A stretch of DNA of 20,000 bases, from assembly GCA_010093815.1 (NCBI GenBank), contig ML996579.1. One strand, written 5' to 3'. The translations under genes were made by a program, and so were the position numbers. This document shows, in pieces, positions 1,668 to 18,139 of this stretch (position 1 is its first letter; every line of letters starts with the position of its first letter). Source of the DNA: Pseudovirgaria hyperparasitica (Eukaryota). The notes below the pieces were generated by a model, which searched no databases, was not told the origin of the DNA, and saw only the letters and a list, made by a program, of their open reading frames with translations.

Positions 1668-2939
1668 TCACTGGCCTCCTCCAACTCCGAACATCTCCGT
1701 TCTCACTCTTTCACTGTCAACTCCATACTCCTTCAACTTCGCCTCTGCAGCACACATGAACTCCGTCGGTCCACAGACAAAGTACCGCGTTCTCTCATCC
1801 CCTAAATGCAACAGCTCCCGCTCTCTCAAAATATCCATGTCCATCCTTCCCTGACAGTCATACTCCTCCCCCTGAGTCTCCCCCTCATCCGGACAAGTCG
1901 TAAAAAATACAACCCTCAAGCCCACATACTCCCTTTCTACATCCCTCAACCGCACACGAAACACCCTATCCACGTCCCTCCTCGCCGTATGCACCAGCGT
2001 AATCCTCCTCTTTCCCTTCTCCGCCTCCAGCATCGCCATCAACGGCGTAATACCCACCCCAGCACCCAGCAACACCAACGGCACATTCCCATCCCCATCC
2101 CCATCCACACTCCCCTCCTTTGCCGCATCAAACCCAAAATCCCCACCCGGGCAAGAAACCTCAACCTCCCCCCCAACCCCCATCCCATGCAAAACCCCAC
2201 TCACGTACCCGCCCCTAAACCCACCCCTCCCATCCTCCCTCTTCACACTAACCCTCAAATACCCCCTTCCAGGCCCATCACTCAAACTATACTGCCGCGC
2301 CTGCAACATACCCTCATCCCCACTCCCAGTAGCGCCCGGCACACGCACCCGCAAACTAACATACATCCCCGGCACAAACCCCGGCACGTCCGCCCCATCC
2401 CCACGCACAAGATAAAACGACGTCACACACTCCGTCTCCATCTCCTTTCGCACAATCCGACACGTCTGCCAGCCTACCCAATTGCTGTGCTCCACACGCG
2501 CGTAGCCAGCGCGCTCAAGCGCAATCATACTGTTCGCAAGCTCCCAATACGCAGCCGTCCACGCAGCACGTACTTCGGCACTCCACACACCCCCGGGCAG
2601 ATCGCCGAGCACGCGCTGCATCGCGGCGATCAAGCCCTCGCCGACAAGCGTGTACATGGGCGGCGTGATGCCGAGGCTAACGTGCTTCGCGCATACCAGC
2701 TCTAGCATCTTCTTCAAACTGGCCTGGTCGTCGATATGCGTTGCGTATGCATGCAGAGCGGAGGCGAGGGCGCGGGCTTGGTGGGATGTGGACTGGTGGG
2801 TTGCGTTGAAGATGTTTGAGAGGTCTGGGTGGGCGGATAGGAGTGATTCGTAGAAGGAGGAGGTGATTGCTGTGCCGTGGAGGGCGAGGGCGGGGATTGT
2901 GGCTTTGATGATTGCGCGCTGGGGGGTTGTGAGGGACAT
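1668..2939 (-). CDS. fhb: Flavohemoglobin (nitric oxide dioxygenase), 423 aa, intronless
   Basis: N-terminal globin (SSFYESLL with TyrB10, HQARALA with GlnE7, KHVSLG with proximal His), FAD-binding RQYSLS, NAD-binding GAGVGITP, CGP and terminal EMFG motifs. Confidence 0.96.
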   Translation of the reverse strand: MSLTTPQRAIIKATIPALALHGTAITSSFYESLLSAHPDLSNIFNATHQSTSHQARALASALHAYATHIDDQASLKKMLELVCAKHVSLGITPPMYTLVGEGLIAAMQRVLGDLPGGVWSAEVRAAWTAAYWELANSMIALERAGYARVEHSNWVGWQTCRIVRKEMETECVTSFYLVRGDGADVPGFVPGMYVSLRVRVPGATGSGDEGMLQARQYSLSDGPGRGYLRVSVKREDGRGGFRGGYVSGVLHGMGVGGEVEVSCPGGDFGFDAAKEGSVDGDGDGNVPLVLLGAGVGITPLMAMLEAEKGKRRITLVHTARRDVDRVFRVRLRDVEREYVGLRVVFFTTCPDEGETQGEEYDCQGRMDMDILRERELLHLGDERTRYFVCGPTEFMCAAEAKLKEYGVDSERVRTEMFGVGGGQ

Positions 2940-4217: not shown

Positions 4218-6638
4218 TCAAGCCTTCTCCTCACCCTCTTTTTTGCCAGCGTCATTGGGGGCCTCACCCTCGCCTTCGCCTTTAGACTTGACATATTCGT
4301 CATACACGTTCATAGCTTCATCAACCTTGGCACGAAGAGCGACCTCGTCGTTAATCCTGCACAGTGTTAGTGAAATTGTCCAAGTGTTTAGGTAGATATG
4401 GACTTGACTTACAGGTTGATGAGCTCGGTATTGTCCATCTCCAACAACATACCAGTGATCTTACCAGCCAACTCGGGCTGCTGAGTGTGGATCTTGGGGT
4501 ACAGAGCCTCACCGAGCATCTGTTTCTGAGTCTGTGGTGGAGCAGCGTTCAGAGCGTTGACGTCAACACCATCAACAGGGGGCAATGGTCCGGACTGGCC
4601 AGTCTGACCAGGGGCAGGACGACCTTGGGGAAATCCAAGACCACCTTGGCCTGAGCGTCCATTTTGCTGGAAACCACCACGGCCGCCTTGACCGGCTTGC
4701 TGACCACCACGCATGCCTGGAACCATCGGAGGCATCTGAGGCATGCCAGGAGCACCACCCATTGGACCACCACGACCACCAGAACCACGACCGCCCATAG
4801 CAGCGGCTTGTACTTGAGCGACCTGCTGCAGGTACTGAGGGTTCATGTACGGAGGGAAGGCGCCAGGAGGCATGTTTGGTGGCATACCATACATTGGTGG
4901 CATTTGCTGGCCGTTGGGGCCGCCACGTCCACCTTGTTGAGGACCACCAGGGAAGCCAGCTCCGCGTCCTCCTTGTCCTCCGCTCGGCATTACGGGGAAT
5001 GGCATCTGACCACGAGCATTCGGAGGCATGAAGCCCTGCTGACCAGGAGGGAAGAACATCTGGGGTTGAATGAATCCCTGGGTGGGCATGCCACCGGCGA
5101 CAGCAGCCTGCTGTTGGAGACGAATTTGATTACGAGCTTGGATGGTGGCCTCGAGCTATGGCATCATGGTTAGCAACAGAGACTAAAGTGCGCTTTCAGA
5201 GTTTGCAACGTACCTGACTCTTGCGCACATCCTTACGCTGAGCGAGAGCAACGTATAGAGGCTTGCTCTCAAACATCTTTTGATTCATCTCGGTAACAGC
5301 CTTGGTAGCCTCATCAGGATTGCTGAAGCACACGAAGCCGAAACCTTTGCTCTTGCCAAGAATCTTCTTCTCGCCCTTGATGGTGACCTTGTCCTTCTCC
5401 TTGGTGTCCTTTGACTCGTCGCCTGAGCCTTCCTTCTTGTCTTCGCTCTCTTCGTCTTTCTTTGCCTCATCCTTCTCAGTCTTTGCCTCGTCCTCATCCT
5501 TGTTTTCCTCAGCCTCAGCACCATCAGCGGGGAGAGTGTCACGCATGACCTTGGCGGAGGTAATGTTGCCGTATGGCGCAAACATATCGCGTAGCTTATC
5601 ATCATCCACATCGTCATTGAGGTTTTTGACGTACAGATTAACGCCCTGGTACTTCGACTGCTTCTCAATACGGGCAGCCTCATATTGCTTACGGAGCTCC
5701 TCCTCACGTTCGTGCTTCTTCTGCGCACGGCCCACGTACAGCTTCTGACCCTTAAAGTCAGAATCGTTCAGTGTGTCCACTGCGACAGAAGCATCCTCGT
5801 GCTTGATGAAGTTGACGAAACCAAAGCCACGGCTCTTACCAGCATCATCAACAGCCAAAGAGGCGGAGGTGATAGGACCGTGCTTCTCGAAAAGAGCGCG
5901 GAACTCTTCCTCAGTAGCCTCTAGATCAATGTTCTTGACGTAGATGTTGGTGAAATTGGCCTTCATCTCCTCAAACTTGCTCATGCGATCCTTCTTAGGA
6001 ATATGGTGACCAACGAAAACCTTCTTCTCGTTCAACAACATACCGTTGACATGCTTGATGGCATTGGTGGCTGCCTCGGCAGTCTCGTAGTGAACGAATC
6101 CGTAACCCTTGGAGTTGCCTTGCTCATCCTGAGCGACCTTGCAACTGAGGATGTTGCCAAACGCGGCAAATGTATCGTGGAGAGCCTTGTTGTCGATAGC
6201 AACATCCAGGTTTTTGATGAAGACATTTCCTTGACCAGTCTTGCGCAGAGCTGGGTCACGCTGGGACCACATGATGCGGCAGGGCTTTCCTTTGATGACA
6301 GTGTAGTTGAGCTCCTCCAAAGCCTTCTCTCCGTCCTCGGAAGAGTTGTAGTTGACATAAGCGTATCCGAGAGAGCGACGAGTAACGGCGTCACGGCAGA
6401 CACGAATCGAAGCTACCTGGCCGATGGAGGAGAAGAGCTCGAACAACATGGCTTCGGTGACAGAAGGATCGAGCTCGCCCACGTAGAGGGAAGCAGAGTT
6501 GTGATGGGCAGAGGAAGGTGCTGCAGAGGTGGGAGTTGGCACCTCAGAGCCGGAAGGCGCACCGACATTGGTGTTGATGCTGGCACCGTTGGGACCGGCC
6601 TCAGCGGGCGCCGGTGAAGTAGAAGCTTCAGCAGACAT
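4218..6638 (-). CDS. pab1: Cytoplasmic poly(A)-binding protein, 768 aa; exons 6638-5214, 5155-4413, 4356-4218
   Basis: Four RRMs ([42 protein letters not shown]), Pro/Gly/Gln/Met-rich RGG linker and MLLE domain ([11 protein letters not shown]...[10 protein letters not shown]). Introns 5156-5213 (GTACGT..GCTAAC..TAG) and 4357-4412 (GTAAGT..ACTAAC..CAG) keep the frame (2307 nt). Confidence 0.98.
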
Positions 6639-7560: not shown

Positions 7561-10500
7561 CTACTCCTGGAGGCTCTCATCCCATCCACCGCGCTCCATC
7601 AGGAAGCCTTCTACACGCTCTCGACACTCCTCCAAGCCCGTCCCTAGCGCATCTCGCCACTGTCCCTCTACCACCTCAACCTTCTCCTTCAAATCCAGTG
7701 TCAGTCTCGCCTCTTCATCTTGCCTAATGGCTTGCATCTCGGCTTCCACCGTCGCATGATCTTCCCCGGCCATATGTCTTTGCATCTCTAGCAGACGTGT
7801 ACTGGCAGCCATCACGCCATTCTTGACCTCATGAAGGAGGCAGAATAGATTTGTCTGCGATTCGATGAATTGATACGCAGACTTCCTTGCATGATCGAGC
7901 AGCGAGTACAAATACTGCATAGGAAAGTCGTAGTAGGACGGATTTTCGCTGTACTCCTGAAGTGGGATCAAGATCTGAAAATCCTCAAGATCCTGCGGTA
8001 CCTTTTGGACCACGGTAAGAAGTCCCGGAGCTATGTCCCAGAAGGCAGATAGCTGATCCTCCACACCGCGAGATACGTTCGCCTCTACGATCCTGAGGAA
8101 TTCTTCAAAGCGTCTGAGGGTGTCTTTCTCGAATCCGACCTTGCGCTCTTGTGCATCTTTGGTAAAGAAGGCATCGACCTCTTTGGCCTTATCTTGATTG
8201 CCTCCCATATCGTATGGGATCAGTACGTACTTCTTGTAGTATTCGTCTCGCTCTCGCTCAACTTCAAACAGATCCCGATGAAGTTGCTCGCGCACCTCGA
8301 AAAGCCACTTTAGAAGAGTCAATTTCTCGAGTAGCTCTGGTTGCTCATCTCCTTCTTCCTGCGTTTGATTGGGATTTGACTCATGCGCTAGATCCTTCCT
8401 CAGATGATCAATTGAGGCTGTAGCCTTGGTGACTCTCTCTGAAAGCAACGCATTCAATGGGCCGTATACTTCTTTTTTATAGCCGTCGAATTCTGCCTTT
8501 GCGCATTGCTGGCTACGCTGCACTTCTTGACTGTCGAAATTGGCTTCTGCTTTGGCTGCATCGGCAAAGCTCATATGTCCCGAACGTATTTGGTCCTGTA
8601 TATCGAAACGGAGATGGTTCCGTCGTTCTGCTGCTGCTGTGCGCTCTTGCTCTCGAGCTGACGCTACCCGGGATTTGAACTCATCTTTAATTGGGTTCAC
8701 ACTATCGAAATCGCTCAAGCTGCGTAGAACAGCACGAATAGAGGCTAAATCAGGATGGTTATTGTTGACTGCGGGGTGGTGACGAGGGTATGGCGGTGGA
8801 AGGGTGACTAGCCGAGAAACGTCAAGTTTATATGGGTCTGGAGTCGCTGGTGCAGAGTGGGTGAAGAACTGGTATGAGTGCGCAGATTGCGGGAGCTGTT
8901 GTTCGTGTAGGCCGAACTTCTCTGGCGGATACTCATTCGGACCAAGACCTGCATAGTCAATGCTAGGCCCTGGAGTACCACTATACGGTGGTGTGCTCTC
9001 TCCATCCCACTGGAGATGTTCGCGAACTTCCTTGGGAAGACCCATATACTTTGACTCACGCTTCGATCGTTCTAGCTTCTTACCGCCTCTGCCTACTGAT
9101 CCATTGGCGCTTTCTTCCCACCATCGACTGGCGGACCGTCCTCGAGAATCTTGCTCGTCTGGTACAGTGCTCACTGCCATACTTGGTATGGGTGATAGGC
9201 ATGGTTGGAACCCTGTGTGATGCGGGTTCTCCCCACGGCTCTGTTGACTCGAAACACTCGCTGGTGAGTCTGGCTCACCGCGGGCAAACGTTGTCTTCGT
9301 AACTGCTGGGCTAGGGGTTGGGAAAGGAGAGGAAGGTGTCGCAGACCGCCAATGAGATGCTGATAGAGGTGCCGTCTGGCTAGGGGTAGCGGATCGCCGT
9401 CCTGTGCCATTATATGAACGCCACATGTCCCGTGTAAGGTCGAAAATTTCGCTAGCCATGCTATCAAATGCCGCTGAATATTGATCACGCCGTAATCGAG
9501 ATTCTGCAACAATAAATTCGGCAAACATTTCAAGACGCTCTTGGTCGGTTTGAGCATTCCTTTCCCTGTCAACAAAAATCCGATGCCTCTCGATAGCAGC
9601 TTCGGCGAAGAGGGCACCTTCTGAAGACTTAGGTCGGTTTATGGCACCAGCAATGGCCGTAGGTGTTTTCGTCATACCAGCAGAAGGTGGACGAAATGGC
9701 GAGAGTGGAGCCTGCATCGAAATATCCTCATTGGGAACATGGAGAATGTGCGATATAGGTCGATCCAAGGCATGTAGCCTCGGTACCCCAAGTCCGGATG
9801 CGGAAGGCTCCATATGTTGCGATATGGGTGGTGTAGGAAGCGCTTTTGGAGGCACTGCCGGATTTACGGATCTTCCCTGTACCGCTTTCCCGGAGGCCTT
9901 GTCTACAGTTGGGGAGAATGGAGGAGTCGGCGCAAAAGACTCTGGCGACATCACTCTGGCCGATGGGTCTGCAGTCCGGGGCGTGGAATGAGACGATGAC
10001 GGTTCGGCTTCAAGAGAGCTCTTCTTCGTCAGAAACCCTGGTGATGGCATCCCTCTGCTGCCTGCGCTCCTCGGTGTACCCTTTGTGATGGTACGTCTCC
10101 GGCTAAGAGCGCTACCTATCGAGTCTAAAACTAAATCTGCAGGTTTGGCAGATGTGGATGGGCTGGCAGCTTGTTGCATGTCACGAGCCCAGGGATTATT
10201 GTTTTGCTCAACGGCCGTCGGAGGCTCCCCAATGCGCTCTCTCGCAGCTCGGCTTTCATTCCTGCGTTCTCTAATTCCTCTGGCGCTTGGATCACGTTTG
10301 GCTGTATTACGGTCCAGCACACTAGGGAACACGTGTGCGGTGTGAGGCTCAGAAATTCGGCTCCCTGAAGCTGTACTTCCTTCGCCATTAGTATTGGAGT
10401 TCCAGTCCGAGCCTGTAACGGAAGTTCCAGTCTCAAGACGAAGGCCTCTTGCAGCGGGTGACTTTGAACGCCTTCGAGCGTCTTCCTCAACCCAATCCGC

Positions 10501-11823
10501 GGGCGTTGGCGGTACAGGTCCAAGCATTGTGCCTGTTTGAGGTGGTCTTCTAGTAGGGGGCCCAGGAAGAGGGATTGTGCCTCCAGCGGCGGATGAGGAG
10601 GAAGGAAAGTGATCTGGTGTCCTACTCATACTCTGTGACCGCGAATTGGTCGGTGGTGGTGGACCTGGAGGTGGTGGAGGCAGAGCCGCCCCAGGAGCTG
10701 AAGCCTGCACGGGAGACTCCGTACTACCACTTCTCCTAGACGGCCCGGCGATGCCAATTGCACCAGTGGATGCAGCCCTCCTCGCTGCAGGTGCTCGAAC
10801 GTCCATGTTATAGAATTCACGCTCGTTGATGATGTGCTGGGTGCCTCGACTGGGTCCTCAATTAGTCGTCATACCTATCAAAGAATCCAACTTCACAACG
10901 GCACTTACTGCTGCAAGTCTGGCGTCCGCATTAGGGCATCTGTAGTACCTTGCCGGAGTGATTCCATGTTGCTCGGCCCTGCTATTATCTCTGGTGCCTT
11001 ATCTTTATGCCTGGACATCAGACTGAAGAAGCCTCGGTCGCCTTTGGGGCGTGACGAAGACCTATCTCGCCCGGGCGGCGGAGGGAAAGATGCACCAGCC
11101 AGTTGTGGGGTTGTATGTGCCGATATAGTTCTGTTTTGCTCCGGCGTCCTCGAACTGGATGCAACCGCTGGGCTATATTCAGCGTGCTGCGATCCCCCAG
11201 GCGACATAATGTTCTGTACAGATGCAAAGACATTGTTCGCGTTGTGGTGGGTCGGGCTGGCAGCATGGGCCATATTGGGAGAATATGGAGGAGGAGGAGA
11301 GGGCATTGAAGCTATATTATTCACAATCAGCATTTTCCCAGCGTCTACGCATGAGGATCGGCGACATACCCTCCATTCCTGTCAGACCATCCGACCTCAC
11401 AGTAGATTGAGGACTTGACCGTGGCATGAAAGTTCCACTGGTAGGGCCATGCCTCCCCCATTCTTGTGGATTGTACGACGACACCATGGCTGTCGCGCTC
11501 CGGCAGCTCATAGGCGACTGGGAGCCTCTCGAGGAAGACGACGGCAGCGTGGTAGCAGAGGCTGGCGAGAAGACTGACGGGGTATATGGGGAAAGCGGAG
11601 TGTTTATGGAGACGGCCGAGGCGGGTGTAGGAGGTTGTAAGAAAGTCCCGTGCTGCGCGCCTATTGTGGTAGTTATGGAAGGCGGCTGTTGTACAGCTAT
11701 GCGCCGTAATGGAGACGGCTGTGCGGTACGATACAACGGCGATGAAGATATGGCAGGAGAGGTAGGATTAGGCGGGGGACCTGGAGGAGGAGGATAGACA
11801 TTCCTTTGACTAGCGCCGTGCAT
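7561..11823 (-). CDS. Large protein of unknown function, 1381 aa; exons 11823-11370, 11311-10909, 10849-7561
   Basis: Three ORF-track ORFs join in frame through introns 11312-11369 (GTATGT..GCTGAT..TAG) and 10850-10908 (GTAAGT..ACTAAT..CAG), total 4146 nt. Pro/Ser-rich disordered N-terminal two-thirds and helical, coiled-coil-like C-terminus. Start codon is the first in-frame ATG and is less certain. Confidence 0.88.
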
Positions 11824-13007: not shown

Positions 13008-14198
13008 TTATTTCTGGTACTTGTTGTAGGTGTCAATCACCTTTTGCACTTCGTCATAACTGCCCAGGAAGATGCCGGACCGATCGTGAATATGCTCGGG
13101 CGGAACCTCAAGCATGCGCTGCATCTTACTATTGACAGCCTGACCACCAGCTATACATTCGTTAGCAAGCGGCATCCTATAAGCCGAGACGGAACTCACC
13201 ATTTTCAAAAACCATAGCCATAGGAGCGCATTCGTACAGAATACGAAGCTTTCCCTTGGGGCTCTTCTTGTCTGCTGGGTACGCAAAGATACCTCCGTAC
13301 AATAGAGTACGGTAAGCATCTGCCACCATGGAACCGATGTATCTCGCGCTATATGGCTTGCTCGATTCAGATCCCTTGAGGCTGTTGACCCACTCCTTGA
13401 TCGGCTCTTCCCAGTAAAGACTGTTACCCTCATTCACCGAATAGATCGCGCGCTGCTTCGGAACCTTCATGTCGGGATGGGTCATGATGAACTCGCCCAG
13501 CGCATTGTCCATGGTGAAGCCAGTGACAGGACCGTCCTTTGTGGTAATGACTAATTGCGTCGAGGCTCCATACATGGTAAATCCACTAGCCACCAGCTCC
13601 GTTCCAGGTTTCAGGATCTCTTCTTTTGTCCCCTGCGCCCCTGGCTCGAGTCTATAGATGCCGAAGATTGTACCGACCGATACACCTGCGTCTAGATTGG
13701 ACGAACCGTCGATAGGATCGCAAACGACAGCATATCTGGCATCTGGAAATTCATCAAACTTGATGACCTCCTCCTCCTCCTCCGAGACCAACATGCGTAC
13801 TCTTGCACAGCTGCGCATCGCGCTGATGAACAGATCATTTCCAATCACATCAAGCTTCTTCTGATCGTCGCCCGTGGTATTTGATGAGCCCGCAAGACCA
13901 GTGAGCTACAGGCACTGTTAGCATCATGTCCGCACAGCTGCAGACTGTACGACGTACGTTGATGAGGGTAGCACGTCGAATGTAATATGCTATGCTTTTG
14001 AATGCAAATTGTAGGGCGTGGCAGAGTAACCTGAGCTCAGTGGTCAGTCTGTAGAACTGACTCAAGATGAGCGTCAACATACGTGAAGTCTCCAGTGGCT
14101 TCTTTGTGTTTGGTTTGCTCCTCGGTCAGGAAGCGCGTGAGAGTGACAATGTCGGTGTTGACCTTTTCCGTCGGAGCTCCATTTCCGTTCGTTGCCAT
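13008..14198 (-). CDS. fbp1: Fructose-1,6-bisphosphatase class I, 345 aa; exons 14198-14083, 14030-13958, 13905-13200, 13150-13008
   Basis: Motifs GDDQKKLDV, SEE, DPIDGSSN, RYIGSMVAD, GKLRILYECAPM. Three canonical introns (14031-14082, 13906-13957, 13151-13199) give 1038 nt in frame. Confidence 0.98.
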
Positions 14199-14479
14199 GA
14201 TTGCGAGTTTAATGGTCGTTGGGGTCTTTCAGGGAAAAGAGAGAGAGGAGAAAGCGATGATATTAAGATTTAGTACAGATGTCAAAGTGAAGCTTCAGAT
14301 GATTCAGAAGAGCCTCGGGTGTGCGGATTAATCTGCTACGGCCTTGGAGTTTCTGCAATTACTTCAAGTATGTGCGAGGTGAGTTATGGAGGTTGGTATG
14401 GACCCGATCGTGGTGTAATGAAGAAGCAGCGAGCCGATTGTCTCATGATTAAGTATCCCGAGGTCAAACTTGTACCAGG

Positions 14480-14492
14480 CCGTGATTTGCCG
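14480..14492. promoter_or_regulatory. CCG-N7-CCG site (AcuK/AcuM-type gluconeogenic activator motif), proximal copy
   Basis: CCG TGATTTG CCG, 282 bp upstream of the fbp1 ATG. Confidence 0.6.
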
Positions 14493-14503
14493 TTCTCGTG
14501 AGA

Positions 14504-14565
14504 GCGGAGTGTACTGCTACAGAGTGCCAGATGACGACGATAGGTGGAGCGTTCTGATTGCGGGG
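14504..14565 (+). promoter_or_regulatory. Cluster of three CreA/Cre1 consensus sites (SYGGRG)
   Basis: GCGGAG 14504-14509, GTGGAG 14544-14549, GCGGGG 14560-14565, between the two CCG-N7-CCG sites. The motif is short, so chance matches are common. Confidence 0.4.
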
Positions 14566-14601
14566 CAGATTAGCTCCTTGAGGTCTCTGCAGTGCTTTCT
14601 C

Positions 14602-14614
14602 CCGACATCTCCCG
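14602..14614. promoter_or_regulatory. CCG-N7-CCG site (AcuK/AcuM-type motif), distal copy
   Basis: CCG ACATCTC CCG, 404 bp upstream of the fbp1 ATG. Confidence 0.6.
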
Positions 14615-15206
14615 CTATTCGGCCGGCTTCATAGCGATAAATGGCGCATCGTCTTGAGACAGCGACGGTCATGTATCAATATCATAGATGAGAAGACATT
14701 GGAGTGAAAGGAGTCCGCCATTGCTACCCTAGCACCACTCAAGTTTAATCACAGACATCGGGATCAAGTGCTCGCGTGTTCATGACCTCCAGAAGCGGTA
14801 AGGTCTGATCGACTCGGCACAGCACCGTCCTGCTGGGAAAAAGACTACATGAGCGTGCCAACCATTAGCATATTCTGTGTCAGCAGGCTCATCGATTCGT
14901 GGAATGAGGTTGGCATAACGATTATTGCTGAGAAGTCATTGGGATTCAGGCTACAACAAAGCCAACGTGGGTGTTGGATCATTTCAGGGAGAGCCCTGGC
15001 AGGGAGAAGTGTGTAAGCTAGGCTCGAAAGAGCAAGGGAGCTATGGCCCAGCTAGCCTGCGCCGGGGAACAGCCGTAGTTCAACCGTAGTAGCGAAACTT
15101 TTTCTCGGTTACCAATTCGTCTACAAAGCTCTTCTTCACCAGCCCATCTTCAATACACATCTCGCCATGCAACTATGTAAGTACAGCTACTTCTCGTCTT
15201 TCCTTT

Positions 15207-15283
15207 CTGATGATTTGTACAACCGCAAACTAGAGTCTTTGACCTCCAAAGAGGAATGAAACTCATCGCACACGTCAGTCTGA
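15207..15283 (+). ncRNA. snR78: Box C/D snoRNA snR78 homologue (LSU Um2421 guide), with a second snR72-like guide
   Basis: Box C TGATGA 15208-15213; guide CAAACTAGAGTC 15226-15237 complementary to LSU GACUCUAGUUUG; D' TTGA 15239-15242; box D CTGA 15280-15283 preceded by CACGTCAG-T. Confidence 0.88.
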
Positions 15284-15483
15284 CTACTGTCGCTTCACGA
15301 AAACATTTTTTCTATTACTGCAAAGTCGTCAACTGACAATTTCTCTAGTTCGCATCCGTGACGCGTCGACTTCCTCGCGCTGATGTGATCTGACAGATCT
15401 CTTCGCATCTATTAGGTGCGAAGAGTATGAGCTTTGTAAATGTAAGTCTCTGATACCCTGCCATGATAATATTTACCCTCGCG

Positions 15484-15568
15484 ATGATGACGTGTGAGCA
15501 TTGCTCGCTGGAAATTACCGACCGAGTAGACTTCGGTCTCTCTGAGGCACAACAAAGGCTGTATCTGA
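15484..15568 (+). ncRNA. snR77: Box C/D snoRNA snR77 homologue (SSU Um578 guide)
   Basis: Box C ATGATGA 15484-15490; guide GCTGGAAATTACCG 15507-15520 pairs with SSU CGGUAAUUCCAGC with one bulged A; D' CCGA 15522-15525; internal AGAC-TTCG-GTCT hairpin; box D CTGA 15565-15568. Confidence 0.88.
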
Positions 15569-15689
15569 GCTTCAACTATGTCACCTACTGTTCTGCATAA
15601 TTGGTTGACGGTGTACTGACAAGATGAATTAGGTCGCAACAAGGCTCGCTCTTATACGGTATGGCCATCTTCTGCTCCTCGAATACTAC

Positions 15690-15772
15690 GTGATGAATGG
15701 CACTGGGCTCCGAACTCTAGAATGAAAAGGATATGCCATACTGCGACAGGCCTAGAAAACCTCGTCCACTGA
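15690..15772 (+). ncRNA. snR76: Box C/D snoRNA snR76 homologue (LSU Cm2197 guide)
   Basis: Box C GTGATGA 15690-15696; guide GCACTGGGC 15700-15708 complementary to LSU GCCCAGUGC; D' CCGA 15710-15713; box D CTGA 15769-15772. Confidence 0.87.
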
Positions 15773-15912
15773 TATCTGCCTTGTGTCTGCGACATGTCGA
15801 CGGTGTTTATTATTCATGGAACTGACGTCGCGTCAGGCATCGCGTTGAACACACCGCGCATGAAACCTCTTTACAGTGTAAGTCATGTGCACCACCTCCA
15901 CTCCTCCTCTAC

Positions 15913-15994
15913 GTGATGAACATCTAGATGACGAGTCTTATCTGGATTTTCCAATGCAGACACCACTTTTTTAATAACCATTCATGCCAACTGA
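15913..15994 (+). ncRNA. snR75: Box C/D snoRNA snR75 homologue (LSU Gm2288 guide)
   Basis: Box C GTGATGA 15913-15919; guide TAGATGACGAG 15925-15935 complementary to LSU CUCGUCAUCUA; variant D' CTTA 15937-15940; second antisense element CCATTCATGC 15978-15987 complementary to nearby LSU GCAUGAAUGG; box D CTGA 15991-15994. Confidence 0.9.
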
Positions 15995-16106
15995 AATGAA
16001 ACTGTTCTCCTCGGCCTTTATCGCTCTTCAAGCACTGACGCTGACATGTCGAAAGAAGTCTAGACCATTGGTGTAAAGTATCTCTCCTTCCGATTGCGCG
16101 CCTTCG

Positions 16107-16181
16107 ATGATGATTCGACTTAAAAATGACAAGCATATGTCCAAGCCACCTCGGTGGTGTTGACGAGACTGTCTCATCTGA
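16107..16181 (+). ncRNA. snR74: Box C/D snoRNA snR74 homologue (SSU Am28 guide)
   Basis: Box C ATGATGA 16107-16113; guide GACAAGCATATG 16128-16139 complementary to SSU 5' end CAUAUGCUUGUC; variant D' CCAA at 16141, with the fifth nucleotide upstream pairing to A28; C' TTGACGA 16160-16166; box D CTGA 16178-16181. Confidence 0.9.
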
Positions 16182-16336
16182 CTGTCGTGCGGCATGATCG
16201 GCGAGCTTGCCAGCAGGTCTGAACCTCTGACTGACTGCGCATCAGATTTGTGGTTGAACATTACGAGCTGGATGTATTCTACCAAGGTAAGCCATCTCCG
16301 CATGACGTCCCCTTGTTCAACTTTTACACCTTCCCA

Positions 16337-16420
16337 ATGATGATTTACTCTATCTCACGACGGTCAACTGAGCTACAAGTTAGCTTTGACGAAAGTGCCT
16401 GTGACAGGGCTTTGATCTGA
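16337..16420 (+). ncRNA. snR73: Box C/D snoRNA snR73 homologue (LSU Cm2959 guide)
   Basis: Box C ATGATGA 16337-16343; guide TCTCACGACGGTC 16353-16365 complementary to LSU GACCGUCGUGAGA; D' CTGA 16368-16371; C' TTGACGA 16386-16392; box D CTGA 16417-16420. Confidence 0.92.
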
Positions 16421-17422
16421 TCTTGACGCGCTTAGTCATGACTTTCATGCACTTGCTGCGATGGACTGTGCTGACACTCTCGCTAGGTACGTACAGTGTG
16501 GCAGTGCATTGTGATGTTCCCTCCCTCGTCCCCGTCCTTGTCCTCGTCTTCGCCTCGTAGAGCACATGGTGCCATGACTGGGCCGAAGTGGAAACGAGCT
16601 GTGACTGTTCTGATGAGCGAGTATTCGTATTAGTCTTAAGTTTTTAATCTAAATGTAATCTTGTTATTGCGAACCCAGCAGTGTTCAAGGTGCTTTCTCG
16701 TCAGTGGCATCGTGCAGTGAATGTGGTTGATCCTATGGCTTGTGGTGACATACCTGATACGCAGGACAGCTGGTTTAGATTTCGGAAAGGCCCGCTTATA
16801 CCCAGTTTTCCAACCATACTTCCATCGTTACCTTCGAAAACCCAGCTTGCCACAGTAATGTTTCAAGCAACACGACCAGTGGTGTCAGTGGGTGTATATC
16901 TTGCTATGAGCTTTGTCTCCTACATCAGCTGAAGGTTGACTCCGCCACTTGAGGGCCGACATTGTATAGCCAGCGTAGACATTACTTCATGCGAGGAATG
17001 ACGCAGTGGAGGCCCATAAGTATGCAGCGCCACAGAGCTTGATTCCTGGACCCTGACTCGATTGATCCAACGGCGGATACGCGGATAGAAATCGAACGAG
17101 TTCCAGGCAGCTAGAGGCTCGTTGTGGACCCACAAGGCACATCAATGAACACGATCTAAAGCGTTCAGAAGGCAAGCCCGAGCGATGTTGCGCCGCGCGA
17201 GCGAGGAGAGAGCGCATAGATAAACGAAGGGTTTATCCAAAGCGGCAGTGCAATCAGGGCAGGACAGCTGAGCAAAGAAGCGAGCAAAAGAGCGCGTGCC
17301 TACCTGTGTTTCCCTCTGATATCTATATCCTATATTTTCTCGACCCTTGTTTCTGTCTACTCGTCCAGAATATCTGTCTATTCGAATTATACCCACCGTA
17401 CCGCATCTGACTAAGAGCAAAC

Positions 17423-18139
17423 ATGCCCTTCTTCAAGCAAGTGACTGCAGGACTGAAAGACCTCAAGGCCTCCTACGATCGCAAGAACGCGAATAAAGAA
17501 GGGAAGAAGCCTGACTATGGGACTGGCAGTGACCCTCAAGCGATAGCCCAGCAACCGTTCGGCCACGGGCAGGCCTACGGCCAGCCATTCGGAAACCCTC
17601 CACAGCAGAACGGCGGTGACTATGCTCCACAGCCATCACAAGGACCACAACCTCAGGCCCAGGGACCGCCAGGCCAGAGCGTGCTTCCCGTAGGCTGGAT
17701 CACGCAGTTCGACCAGAGCAGCCAGCGGTGGTACTTTGTCGAGCAAGCGACTGGCCGCACGCAATGGGAGGCACCGGCTTCTTCTGCGCCTTTTCCTCAT
17801 CTTCAACAAGAACAACAACGACAACAACAGCAACAATTCATACCGCAACCCGCTGGTGCACATGACATTCCGCCTCCTCCTCCGGGACCAGCAGCAGCCG
17901 AACGCGGACAAGGCGGGAAGAAATACGTCAAGCAGGCCGCGCACCTGATCGTCGGCGCGCACAAGAAGAAGAAGGAGAAGAAGAAGCAGAAGAAACAGGC
18001 GCAGCAGCACGGCGGTGGTGCTGCGCATGAGCATGGTGGCCAGGAGGAAGAATACGAGGAAGGGGAGGAGTATGAGGAAGGGGAGGAGGGGGAAGAATAT
18101 GAGGAAGAGGAGGCGTATGAGTATGAAGATTATGAGTAG
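17423..18139 (+). CDS. WW-domain protein, 238 aa, with Gln/Pro/Gly-rich regions, Lys-rich block and Glu/Tyr-rich tail
   Basis: LPVGWITQFDQSSQRWYFVEQATGRTQWEAP is a clear WW domain; start context CAAACATG; single uninterrupted ORF. Confidence 0.9.
   Translation: MPFFKQVTAGLKDLKASYDRKNANKEGKKPDYGTGSDPQAIAQQPFGHGQAYGQPFGNPPQQNGGDYAPQPSQGPQPQAQGPPGQSVLPVGWITQFDQSSQRWYFVEQATGRTQWEAPASSAPFPHLQQEQQRQQQQQFIPQPAGAHDIPPPPPGPAAAERGQGGKKYVKQAAHLIVGAHKKKKEKKKQKKQAQQHGGGAAHEHGGQEEEYEEGEEYEEGEEGEEYEEEEAYEYEDYE

Follow-up and report, generated by a model that had tools for sequence, protein, structure and literature searches.

Can one small RNA do the work for which yeast employs two? This question is raised by the first element of a snoRNA cluster in a 20-kb stretch of fungal DNA (the window, whose first letter is position 1). 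A preliminary description had read the box C/D snoRNA at positions 15207-15283 (+) as a dual guide that combines the functions of yeast snR78, by a 12-nt D' guide, and of snR72, by the 8-nt D guide CACGTCAG. The anatomy of the RNA, its match to Neurospora crassa CD5, the conservation of its orthologues and the literature all agree with this reading. The segment 15203-15287 (+) is very probably a dual-guide snR78/72 snoRNA, corresponding to N. crassa CD5 and to snoStrip clan CD_5 and heading the snR72-78 type cluster of filamentous ascomycetes. The RNA would be released from intron 1 of a non-coding host transcript that undergoes splicing and would assemble with the usual box C/D proteins; a mature RNA is expected to accumulate and, by directing two methylations, to do the work of both snR78 and snR72.

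Anatomy of the snoRNA

The RNA has a box C and a box D as well as internal D' and C' boxes. Box C (TGATGA, 15208-15213, +) is invariant in 66 of 66 orthologues among the matches listed, though it was demanded by the search pattern. It is preceded by C15207, and CTGATGA (15207-15213) thus starts with a C where the generic RUGAUGA has a purine. The spacer between box C and the D' guide ends in a conserved element, AACCGC (15221-15226, +). Then come the D' guide CAAACTAGAGTC (15226-15237, +), the single nucleotide T15238 and box D' (TTGA, 15239-15242, +), of which the UCUUUGA context is also boxed in N. crassa CD5. Between boxes D' and C' lies a hairpin of 4 bp (CCTC, loop CAAA, GAGG; 15243-15254, +) that is recognized by covariation: alignment columns 52/67 and 54/65 stay paired through two-sided changes in 21 and 17, respectively, of the 66 orthologues among the matches listed. 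The C'-like box ATGAAAC (15256-15262, +) emerges from orthologue conservation, its TGAAAC being 90-100% conserved in the 66 orthologues among the matches listed and absent from the search pattern. The D guide CACGTCAG (15271-15278, +) is separated by T15279 from box D (CTGA, 15280-15283, +), which is invariant in the orthologue alignment of the matches listed.

A terminal stem joining boxes C and D is absent; the flanks, CCTTTC and CTACTG, are not complementary, and flanks are unconserved in the orthologue alignment (A1). Many intronic snoRNAs have no such stem. It may also be mentioned that UGAUG of box C (15208-15212) is complementary to CGUCA of the D guide (15273-15277), and that RNAalifold pairs the two in all 66 orthologues among the matches listed. 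This pairing cannot be judged, because both sides are essentially invariant.

The two guides and their predicted targets

A scan of viral contigs for a 19-nt LSU motif gave no match, and all rRNA context is therefore taken from Additional file 4 of the N. crassa study (Liu 2009) and from general background. The D' guide is identical in 12 of 12 nucleotides to that of N. crassa CD5, 5'-CAAACUAGAGUC-3', which pairs over 12 of 12 positions with 26S 5'-GACUCUAGUUUG-3' (Um2383) (PMC2780460). A15234, at position 5 upstream of box D', lies opposite the U of this N. crassa string. On the strength of the match to CD5, the D' guide is predicted to have the function of snR78 and would guide 2'-O-methylation at the LSU uridine that corresponds to yeast U2421. 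The D guide of N. crassa CD5, 5'-UGUACGUCAG-3', pairs with 26S 5'-CUGACGUGCA-3' (Am856) (PMC2780460). In the window, the D guide pairs over 8 bp, and T15275, at position 5 upstream of box D, lies opposite the A of the N. crassa string 5'-CUGACGUG-3', the snR72 site, exactly as the preliminary description had stated. Pairing and conservation together predict the function of snR72 for this guide, which would guide methylation at the LSU adenosine that corresponds to yeast A876.

Each guide therefore combines an antisense element with the fifth-nucleotide rule, with the rRNA strings being those of N. crassa and not of this organism, of which the LSU would carry 5'-GCGGUUCUGACGUGCA-3' and 5'-GACUCUAGUUUG-3'. 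The assignment of Am876 to snR72 in the preliminary description agrees with the literature: in yeast, the D guide of snR72 targets 25S-A876 and the D' guide of snR78 targets 25S-U2421 (PMC5824354). For N. crassa, Am856 is itself a prediction, the primer extension reported there having covered other snoRNAs (PMC2780460).

Conservation of both guides

Metagenome contigs were scanned with a pattern made up of just box C, the D' guide and box D', which returned at least 114 loci. Among the loci listed, 80 came with up to 2.5 kb of flank and 34 with 300 nt. The string GTCAGNCTGA is found within 90 nt after box D' in 105 of the 114 matches listed. Two loci (L017 and L109) are cut by contig ends and give no call on the D guide; seven listed loci are without the string (L011, L020, L034, L071, L091, L092 and L112), some of which may be chance or coding matches. 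Dereplication of the matches listed left 67 distinct C-to-D sequences, that is, 66 orthologues and the window.

Among these listed sequences, 64 of 66 orthologues carry ACGTCAG, which was not part of the search pattern; in the remaining two the heptamer reads ATGTCAG, by which a G-U pair is retained. The full 8-mer is kept in 54 of the 66, and conservation of the 8-mer, which the preliminary description had proposed as a check on its own reading, is thus borne out. The base before box D is a T in 63 of 67 distinct sequences (matches listed and window), and the exact CACACGTCAG of the window is common to four distinct sequences from 13 of the loci listed.

A covariance model (R1) was made from the 66 orthologues among the matches listed, with the window left out and the covarying D'-C' hairpin as sole structure. 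It matches 15203-15287 (+) over its full length with 78.1 bits (E 1.8e-17), while the next-best match in the 20-kb window reaches 5.9 bits. The high score is partly by construction, because the loci were fished with the D' guide of the window; this concerns the 5' half, and the hairpin, the C' box and the D guide lie outside the pattern.

The shortness of the D guide deserves closer consideration. Pairing ends at 8 bp, since A15270 and C15269 (positions 10 and 11 upstream of box D) are opposite C and A of N. crassa 26S 5'-CUGACGUGCA-3', and the preliminary description had suggested that the guide could be decaying. On this view, the RNA would have kept only the snR78 function, its 8-nt D guide being a relic that has stopped directing methylation in this species. 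The box C/D RNP of Chaetomium thermophilum is reported to modify substrates of 9-10 bp efficiently in vitro, with longer duplexes being inhibitory, and the core pairing region comprises positions 3-11 upstream of box D (PMC7229835); the guide in the window pairs at positions 2-9. Moreover, 20 of the 67 distinct sequences listed have at least 10 bp. Against these points stands the distribution of pairing lengths itself. With scoring to a maximum of 10 bp, contiguous Watson-Crick pairing to CUGACGUGCA amounts to 5 bp in 2, 7 bp in 10, 8 bp in 27, 9 bp in 8 and 10 bp in 20 of the 67 sequences listed, so that 8 bp is the commonest class and 12 more sequences have fewer contiguous pairs. The window has an unbroken 8-mer and the T that precedes box D, and its duplex energy (-13.1 kcal/mol, rank 40 of 67 among the matches listed and the window) is close to the median of -13.4. 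Furthermore, ACGTCAG has been kept in the orthologues unasked by the scan. The tree built from the remaining five snoRNAs (47 loci among the matches listed) gives the window a long branch: no locus exceeds 63% identity to it and none of those listed is a close relative, and yet the window keeps the core. Because 8 bp is modal and the duplex energy near-median, the suggestion of decay is not supported, and we regard loss of the snR72 function as very unlikely. Judging by the pairing lengths, the conservation of ACGTCAG and the duplex energies, an 8-bp guide is the typical state of the CD5 family, of which the core is clearly constrained; the guide of the window appears short but not out of range.

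A candidate accessory pairing in the spacer

A short D guide might be assisted by a further element. In the orthologue alignment of the matches listed, the spacer ahead of the D' guide contains a CC that never varies and that usually stands in the context (A)ACCG(C). The pairing published for N. crassa CD25 gives 26S 5'-UCGCAGCGGUUCU-3' (Am846) (PMC2780460), and the published numbering places the CUGACGUGCA target (Am856) directly downstream of it. The GCGGUU to which AACCGC is complementary thus abuts the D-guide target CUGACGUG on its 5' side in N. crassa 26S. Van Nues et al. described in 2011 non-guide elements of 4-11 nt that are complementary to rRNA directly beside the methylation site, some of them in the other guide region or in the spacer by box C (PMC3116282). 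AACCGC (15221-15226) fits this description of extra base-pairing, and it could be imagined that it serves as an accessory element by which a short D guide is compensated and not decaying; we put this forward tentatively, as a possibility that is less probable than its negation. The situation differs from the published elements in that the spacer here also bears an active D' guide and in that the element is known from sequence only. Neither snR72 nor snR78 appears in the lists of 13 and 11 yeast snoRNAs of that work (PMC3116282), which was also the only result of a literature search on snR72 and extra base-pairing; a description of an accessory element for snR72 was not found in it.

The orthologues seem to point to a trade-off. 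Among the 67 distinct and related sequences listed, the longest complementarity of the spacer to this rRNA stretch falls as the D guide lengthens (Spearman rho -0.73), with ACCGC or more in 42 of 47 sequences having a D guide below 10 bp versus 1 of 20 with 10 bp. Accessory pairing anchored on the CC, with G-U allowed, has a mean of 5.7 bp for guides of 7-8 bp, 4.4 for 9 bp and 3.85 for 10 bp (matches listed); when the rRNA 11-mer was shuffled 2000 times, the observed mean complementarity was attained in 22 cases. In one group, AACC has become AGCC, whereby pairing to UU is retained. That D guides of 7-8 bp keep 5-6 bp of accessory pairing, and those of at least 10 bp only 3-4, is suggestive and unproven. 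Since the sequences are related, the raw rho is not proof: the tree of the five other snoRNAs (47 loci listed) allows two independent pairs on supported branches and three on all branches, all in the compensating direction, with a sign test p of 0.5. Two further points bear on the element. GCGGUU is not unique in 26S, as it is also present in the target string of N. crassa Cm1489, and the CC may have another, older role, because the Rfam consensus of yeast snR78 has a conserved CCA just after box C. Some orthologues (L001, L002 and L039) have ACCGCAA(A/T) twice in tandem in the spacer after box C (in L001, ACCGCAATACCGCAAT). If compensation is true, the CD5 family with its spacer element would be a natural test case for the minimum length of a box C/D guide.

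Host gene and order of the cluster

Evidence of splicing comes from contigs of two runs, X3 and X4, which are not recorded as RNA runs but have contigs spliced at GT..AG introns; stretches that no contig covers carry no weight either way. Intron 1 of the non-coding host gene, with the first snoRNA inside, extends from GTAAGT at 15177 to the TAG closing at 15348 (15177-15348, +). It is spliced in X4 only, in one RNA-like contig (side 93) with the joint 15176>15349. The consensus of fungal branch sites is CTRAY, and this consensus together with the 3' splice site at 15348 indicates CTGAC (15332-15336, +) as the likely branch site, with 52 nt from the end of box D to the likely branch nucleotide A15335. 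Four more snoRNA-bearing introns are spliced in X3 and X4 contigs. From these spliced contigs it follows that the cluster is transcribed as a host gene in which each intron holds a single snoRNA, exons are very short and coding room is scarce, as Liu et al. report for N. crassa (PMC2780460).

All following members lie on the plus strand. An snR77-like snoRNA (Rfam Afu_300, 15477-15570; 41.2 bits against a gathering score of 40) is held by the intron 15442-15632 (joint 15441>15633), and an snR76-like snoRNA (Rfam Afu_513, 15686-15774; 68.8 bits), with the guide GGCACUGGGCUCCGA as in N. crassa CD12, by the intron 15658-15835 (joint 15657>15836). These are followed by snR75 (15911-15996; Rfam 75.3 bits) in the intron 15878-16058, which has alternatives (joint 15877>16059). 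The snR74-like snoRNA (16102-16183) has an 18S Am28-type guide, GACAAGCATATGTC, that matches N. crassa CD21, and a D box CTGA at 16178-16181; its SNORD27 score of 27.7 bits is under the gathering score of 52. The last member is snR73 (16333-16422; Rfam 52.9 bits) in the intron 16285-16484 (joint 16284>16485). At the gathering score, Rfam recognizes four snoRNAs downstream of the first (Afu_300, Afu_513, snR75 and snR73), and the N. crassa guide list identifies Afu_300 as CD24 and snR77, Afu_513 as CD12 and snR76, and the RNA at 16102 as CD21 and snR74. From the Rfam matches and this list, the order of the cluster is therefore 78/72-77-76-75-74-73, with none after snR73. A "second snoRNA" at about 15383-15455, read from box-like motifs, was rejected, as it consists of exon 2 (15349-15441) and the next 5' splice site.

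Several observations concern the transcripts of this gene. An alternative joint (15877>15960), present in both X3 and X4, places the 3' splice site inside snR75, and another joint (15875>16246) skips the introns of snR75 and snR74 together; exon skipping has been described for the cluster I host of N. crassa (Liu 2009, PMC2780460). Around the snR74-like snoRNA (16059-16289) the contigs are unspliced; the 3' site of its intron is seen (16245/16246) and the 5' site is not, and the exon following 16059 could be a micro-exon, about 10 nt long and too small for contigs to show. A 2274-nt X4 contig joins host exons 1, 2 and 4 to 1937 nt upstream of 15000 (13063-15176). Its upstream part overlaps a minus-strand gene for fructose-1,6-bisphosphatase (Pfam FBPase, 13008-13848), and the contig is probably a merge of divergent or overlapping transcripts. 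The D' guide of the snR77-like snoRNA (15504-15518) reads GCTGGAAATTACCG, with three A's, while the counterpart in N. crassa CD24, GGAAUUACCG, pairs perfectly with 18S. The AAA is also present in 20 of 28 distinct orthologue contexts among the matches listed and in the Rfam Afu_300 consensus, and the implied duplex would consist of 8 bp, a bulged A and 5 bp.

Elsewhere in the window are a flavohaemoglobin-like ORF (1668-2939, minus strand; Pfam Globin, FAD_binding_6 and NAD_binding_1), a poly(A)-binding-protein-like gene in two ORF pieces on the minus strand (four RRM at 5196-6638 and MLLE at 4409-5089, Pfam), a 1081-aa ORF without a Pfam match (7561-10806, minus strand) and a WW-domain ORF (17423-18139, plus strand; Pfam).

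Search for a separate snR72

A different explanation would be that a complete snR72 elsewhere in the genome methylates the A876-equivalent and that the D guide described here is redundant. The 20-kb window contains no second ACGTCAGNCTGA, and together with the low next-best score of R1 this confirms the earlier observation that a separate snR72 does not follow snR73. Nor is there a second ACGTCAGNCTGA in the 52 loci (51 among the matches listed and the window) that have at least 1500 nt downstream, the 51 related loci being covered within 2.5 kb. In 38 of these 52 loci, all five other guide motifs are found in the order 77-76-75-74-73, the remaining 14 missing at least one of the exact motifs used. 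With no second copy in the 20-kb window or within 2.5 kb in the 51 related loci, redundancy with an snR72 elsewhere in the genome seems highly improbable.

Rfam 15 contains an snR72 model. The family named snR72 gave no match up to E=10. The snR78 family (RF01176) gives 14.4 bits on the first snoRNA, against a gathering score of 48 and for the 5' half only, and it gives no match at E<=10 when 1.9 kb is searched. By its sequence, the first snoRNA belongs to the published CD5 family and not to the yeast-trained Rfam families.

The exact string CACGTCAGNCTGA occurs once in the 20-kb window. As a bare string, the 13-mer is not rare, its pattern with one mismatch having at least one match in 28 of 200 shuffles of the window; what counts is its position directly before the D box of a real snoRNA. 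An accidental resemblance of CACGTCAG to LSU can practically be dismissed: an arbitrary 8-mer has, by simple arithmetic, fair odds of matching some site in several kb of rRNA, but this one precedes box D in exactly the right register and falls on the known snR72 site, and coincidence is contradicted by its conservation in the independently retrieved loci.

Comparison with known systems

The dual-guide arrangement is already published for filamentous fungi, and the window is one more instance of it. In N. crassa CD5, the D guide is assigned to 26S-Am856 (homologue snR72) and the D' guide to 26S-Um2383 (snR78) (PMC2780460). An "snR78/72-associated intron" was reported in 2013 for all Euascomycetes and Yarrowia lipolytica, with the snR72 intron lost from the end of the cluster in most fungi (PMC3596301). 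In the fungal snoRNAome of 2018, the first snoRNA of the Pezizomycotina cluster guides 25S-3615 by D' and 25S-1866 by D, and the dual guide is placed at the root of Pezizomycotina (PMC5824354). In the descriptions of the "snR78/72" intron (PMC3596301) and of snoStrip CD_5 (PMC5824354) that were available, no difference from the window was found, and Figure 4B and the supplements of PMC3596301 may already show similar orthologue sequences. As to the origin of the dual guide, the preliminary description had weighed an ancestral dual guide later split by duplication against a fusion. The same two histories are left open in the literature, where Liu et al. 2009 consider a recombination of two halves or a duplication with specialisation (PMC2780460) and Canzler et al. 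set out the same pair (PMC5824354).

The published Pezizomycotina architecture is thereby confirmed in one more fungal genome, and the annotation gains six intronic snoRNAs, their introns and a UHG-like host gene. Beyond this, the 66 distinct environmental orthologues indicate that the snR72-type guide is typically 7-10 bp long, with an almost invariant core of 7 nt.

Compared with Saccharomyces cerevisiae, the two targets and the gene cluster are the same. Yeast uses two single-guide RNAs, the first and the last of a seven-gene, intron-less polycistron, whereas the window has one RNA in an intron, in a cluster of six snoRNAs with none after snR73. Both guides, the first intronic position in the order 78/72-77-76-75-74-73 and the overall similarity place the RNA of the window in the CD5 family. 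CD5 (EU780929) is likewise intronic, about 80 nt long and first in its cluster, with the same two predicted targets. AACCGCAAACUAGAGUCUUUGA, which comprises the end of the spacer and the D' guide, is common to both RNAs; in each, a short hairpin comes next and, after it, a C' box of the AUG type. The two RNAs are identical in the D' guide with its box, CAAACUAGAGUCUUUGA, and in the last 12 nt, ACGUCAGUCUGA. The spacer after box C and the sequence of the hairpin differ. The D guide of CD5, UGUACGUCAG, forms 10 pairs including one G-U, while that of the window, CACACGUCAG, forms 8 Watson-Crick pairs before two mismatches. ACGUCAG-U-CUGA is common to both RNAs, and the window has a C where CD5 has a U, a G-C pair taking the place of a G-U pair.
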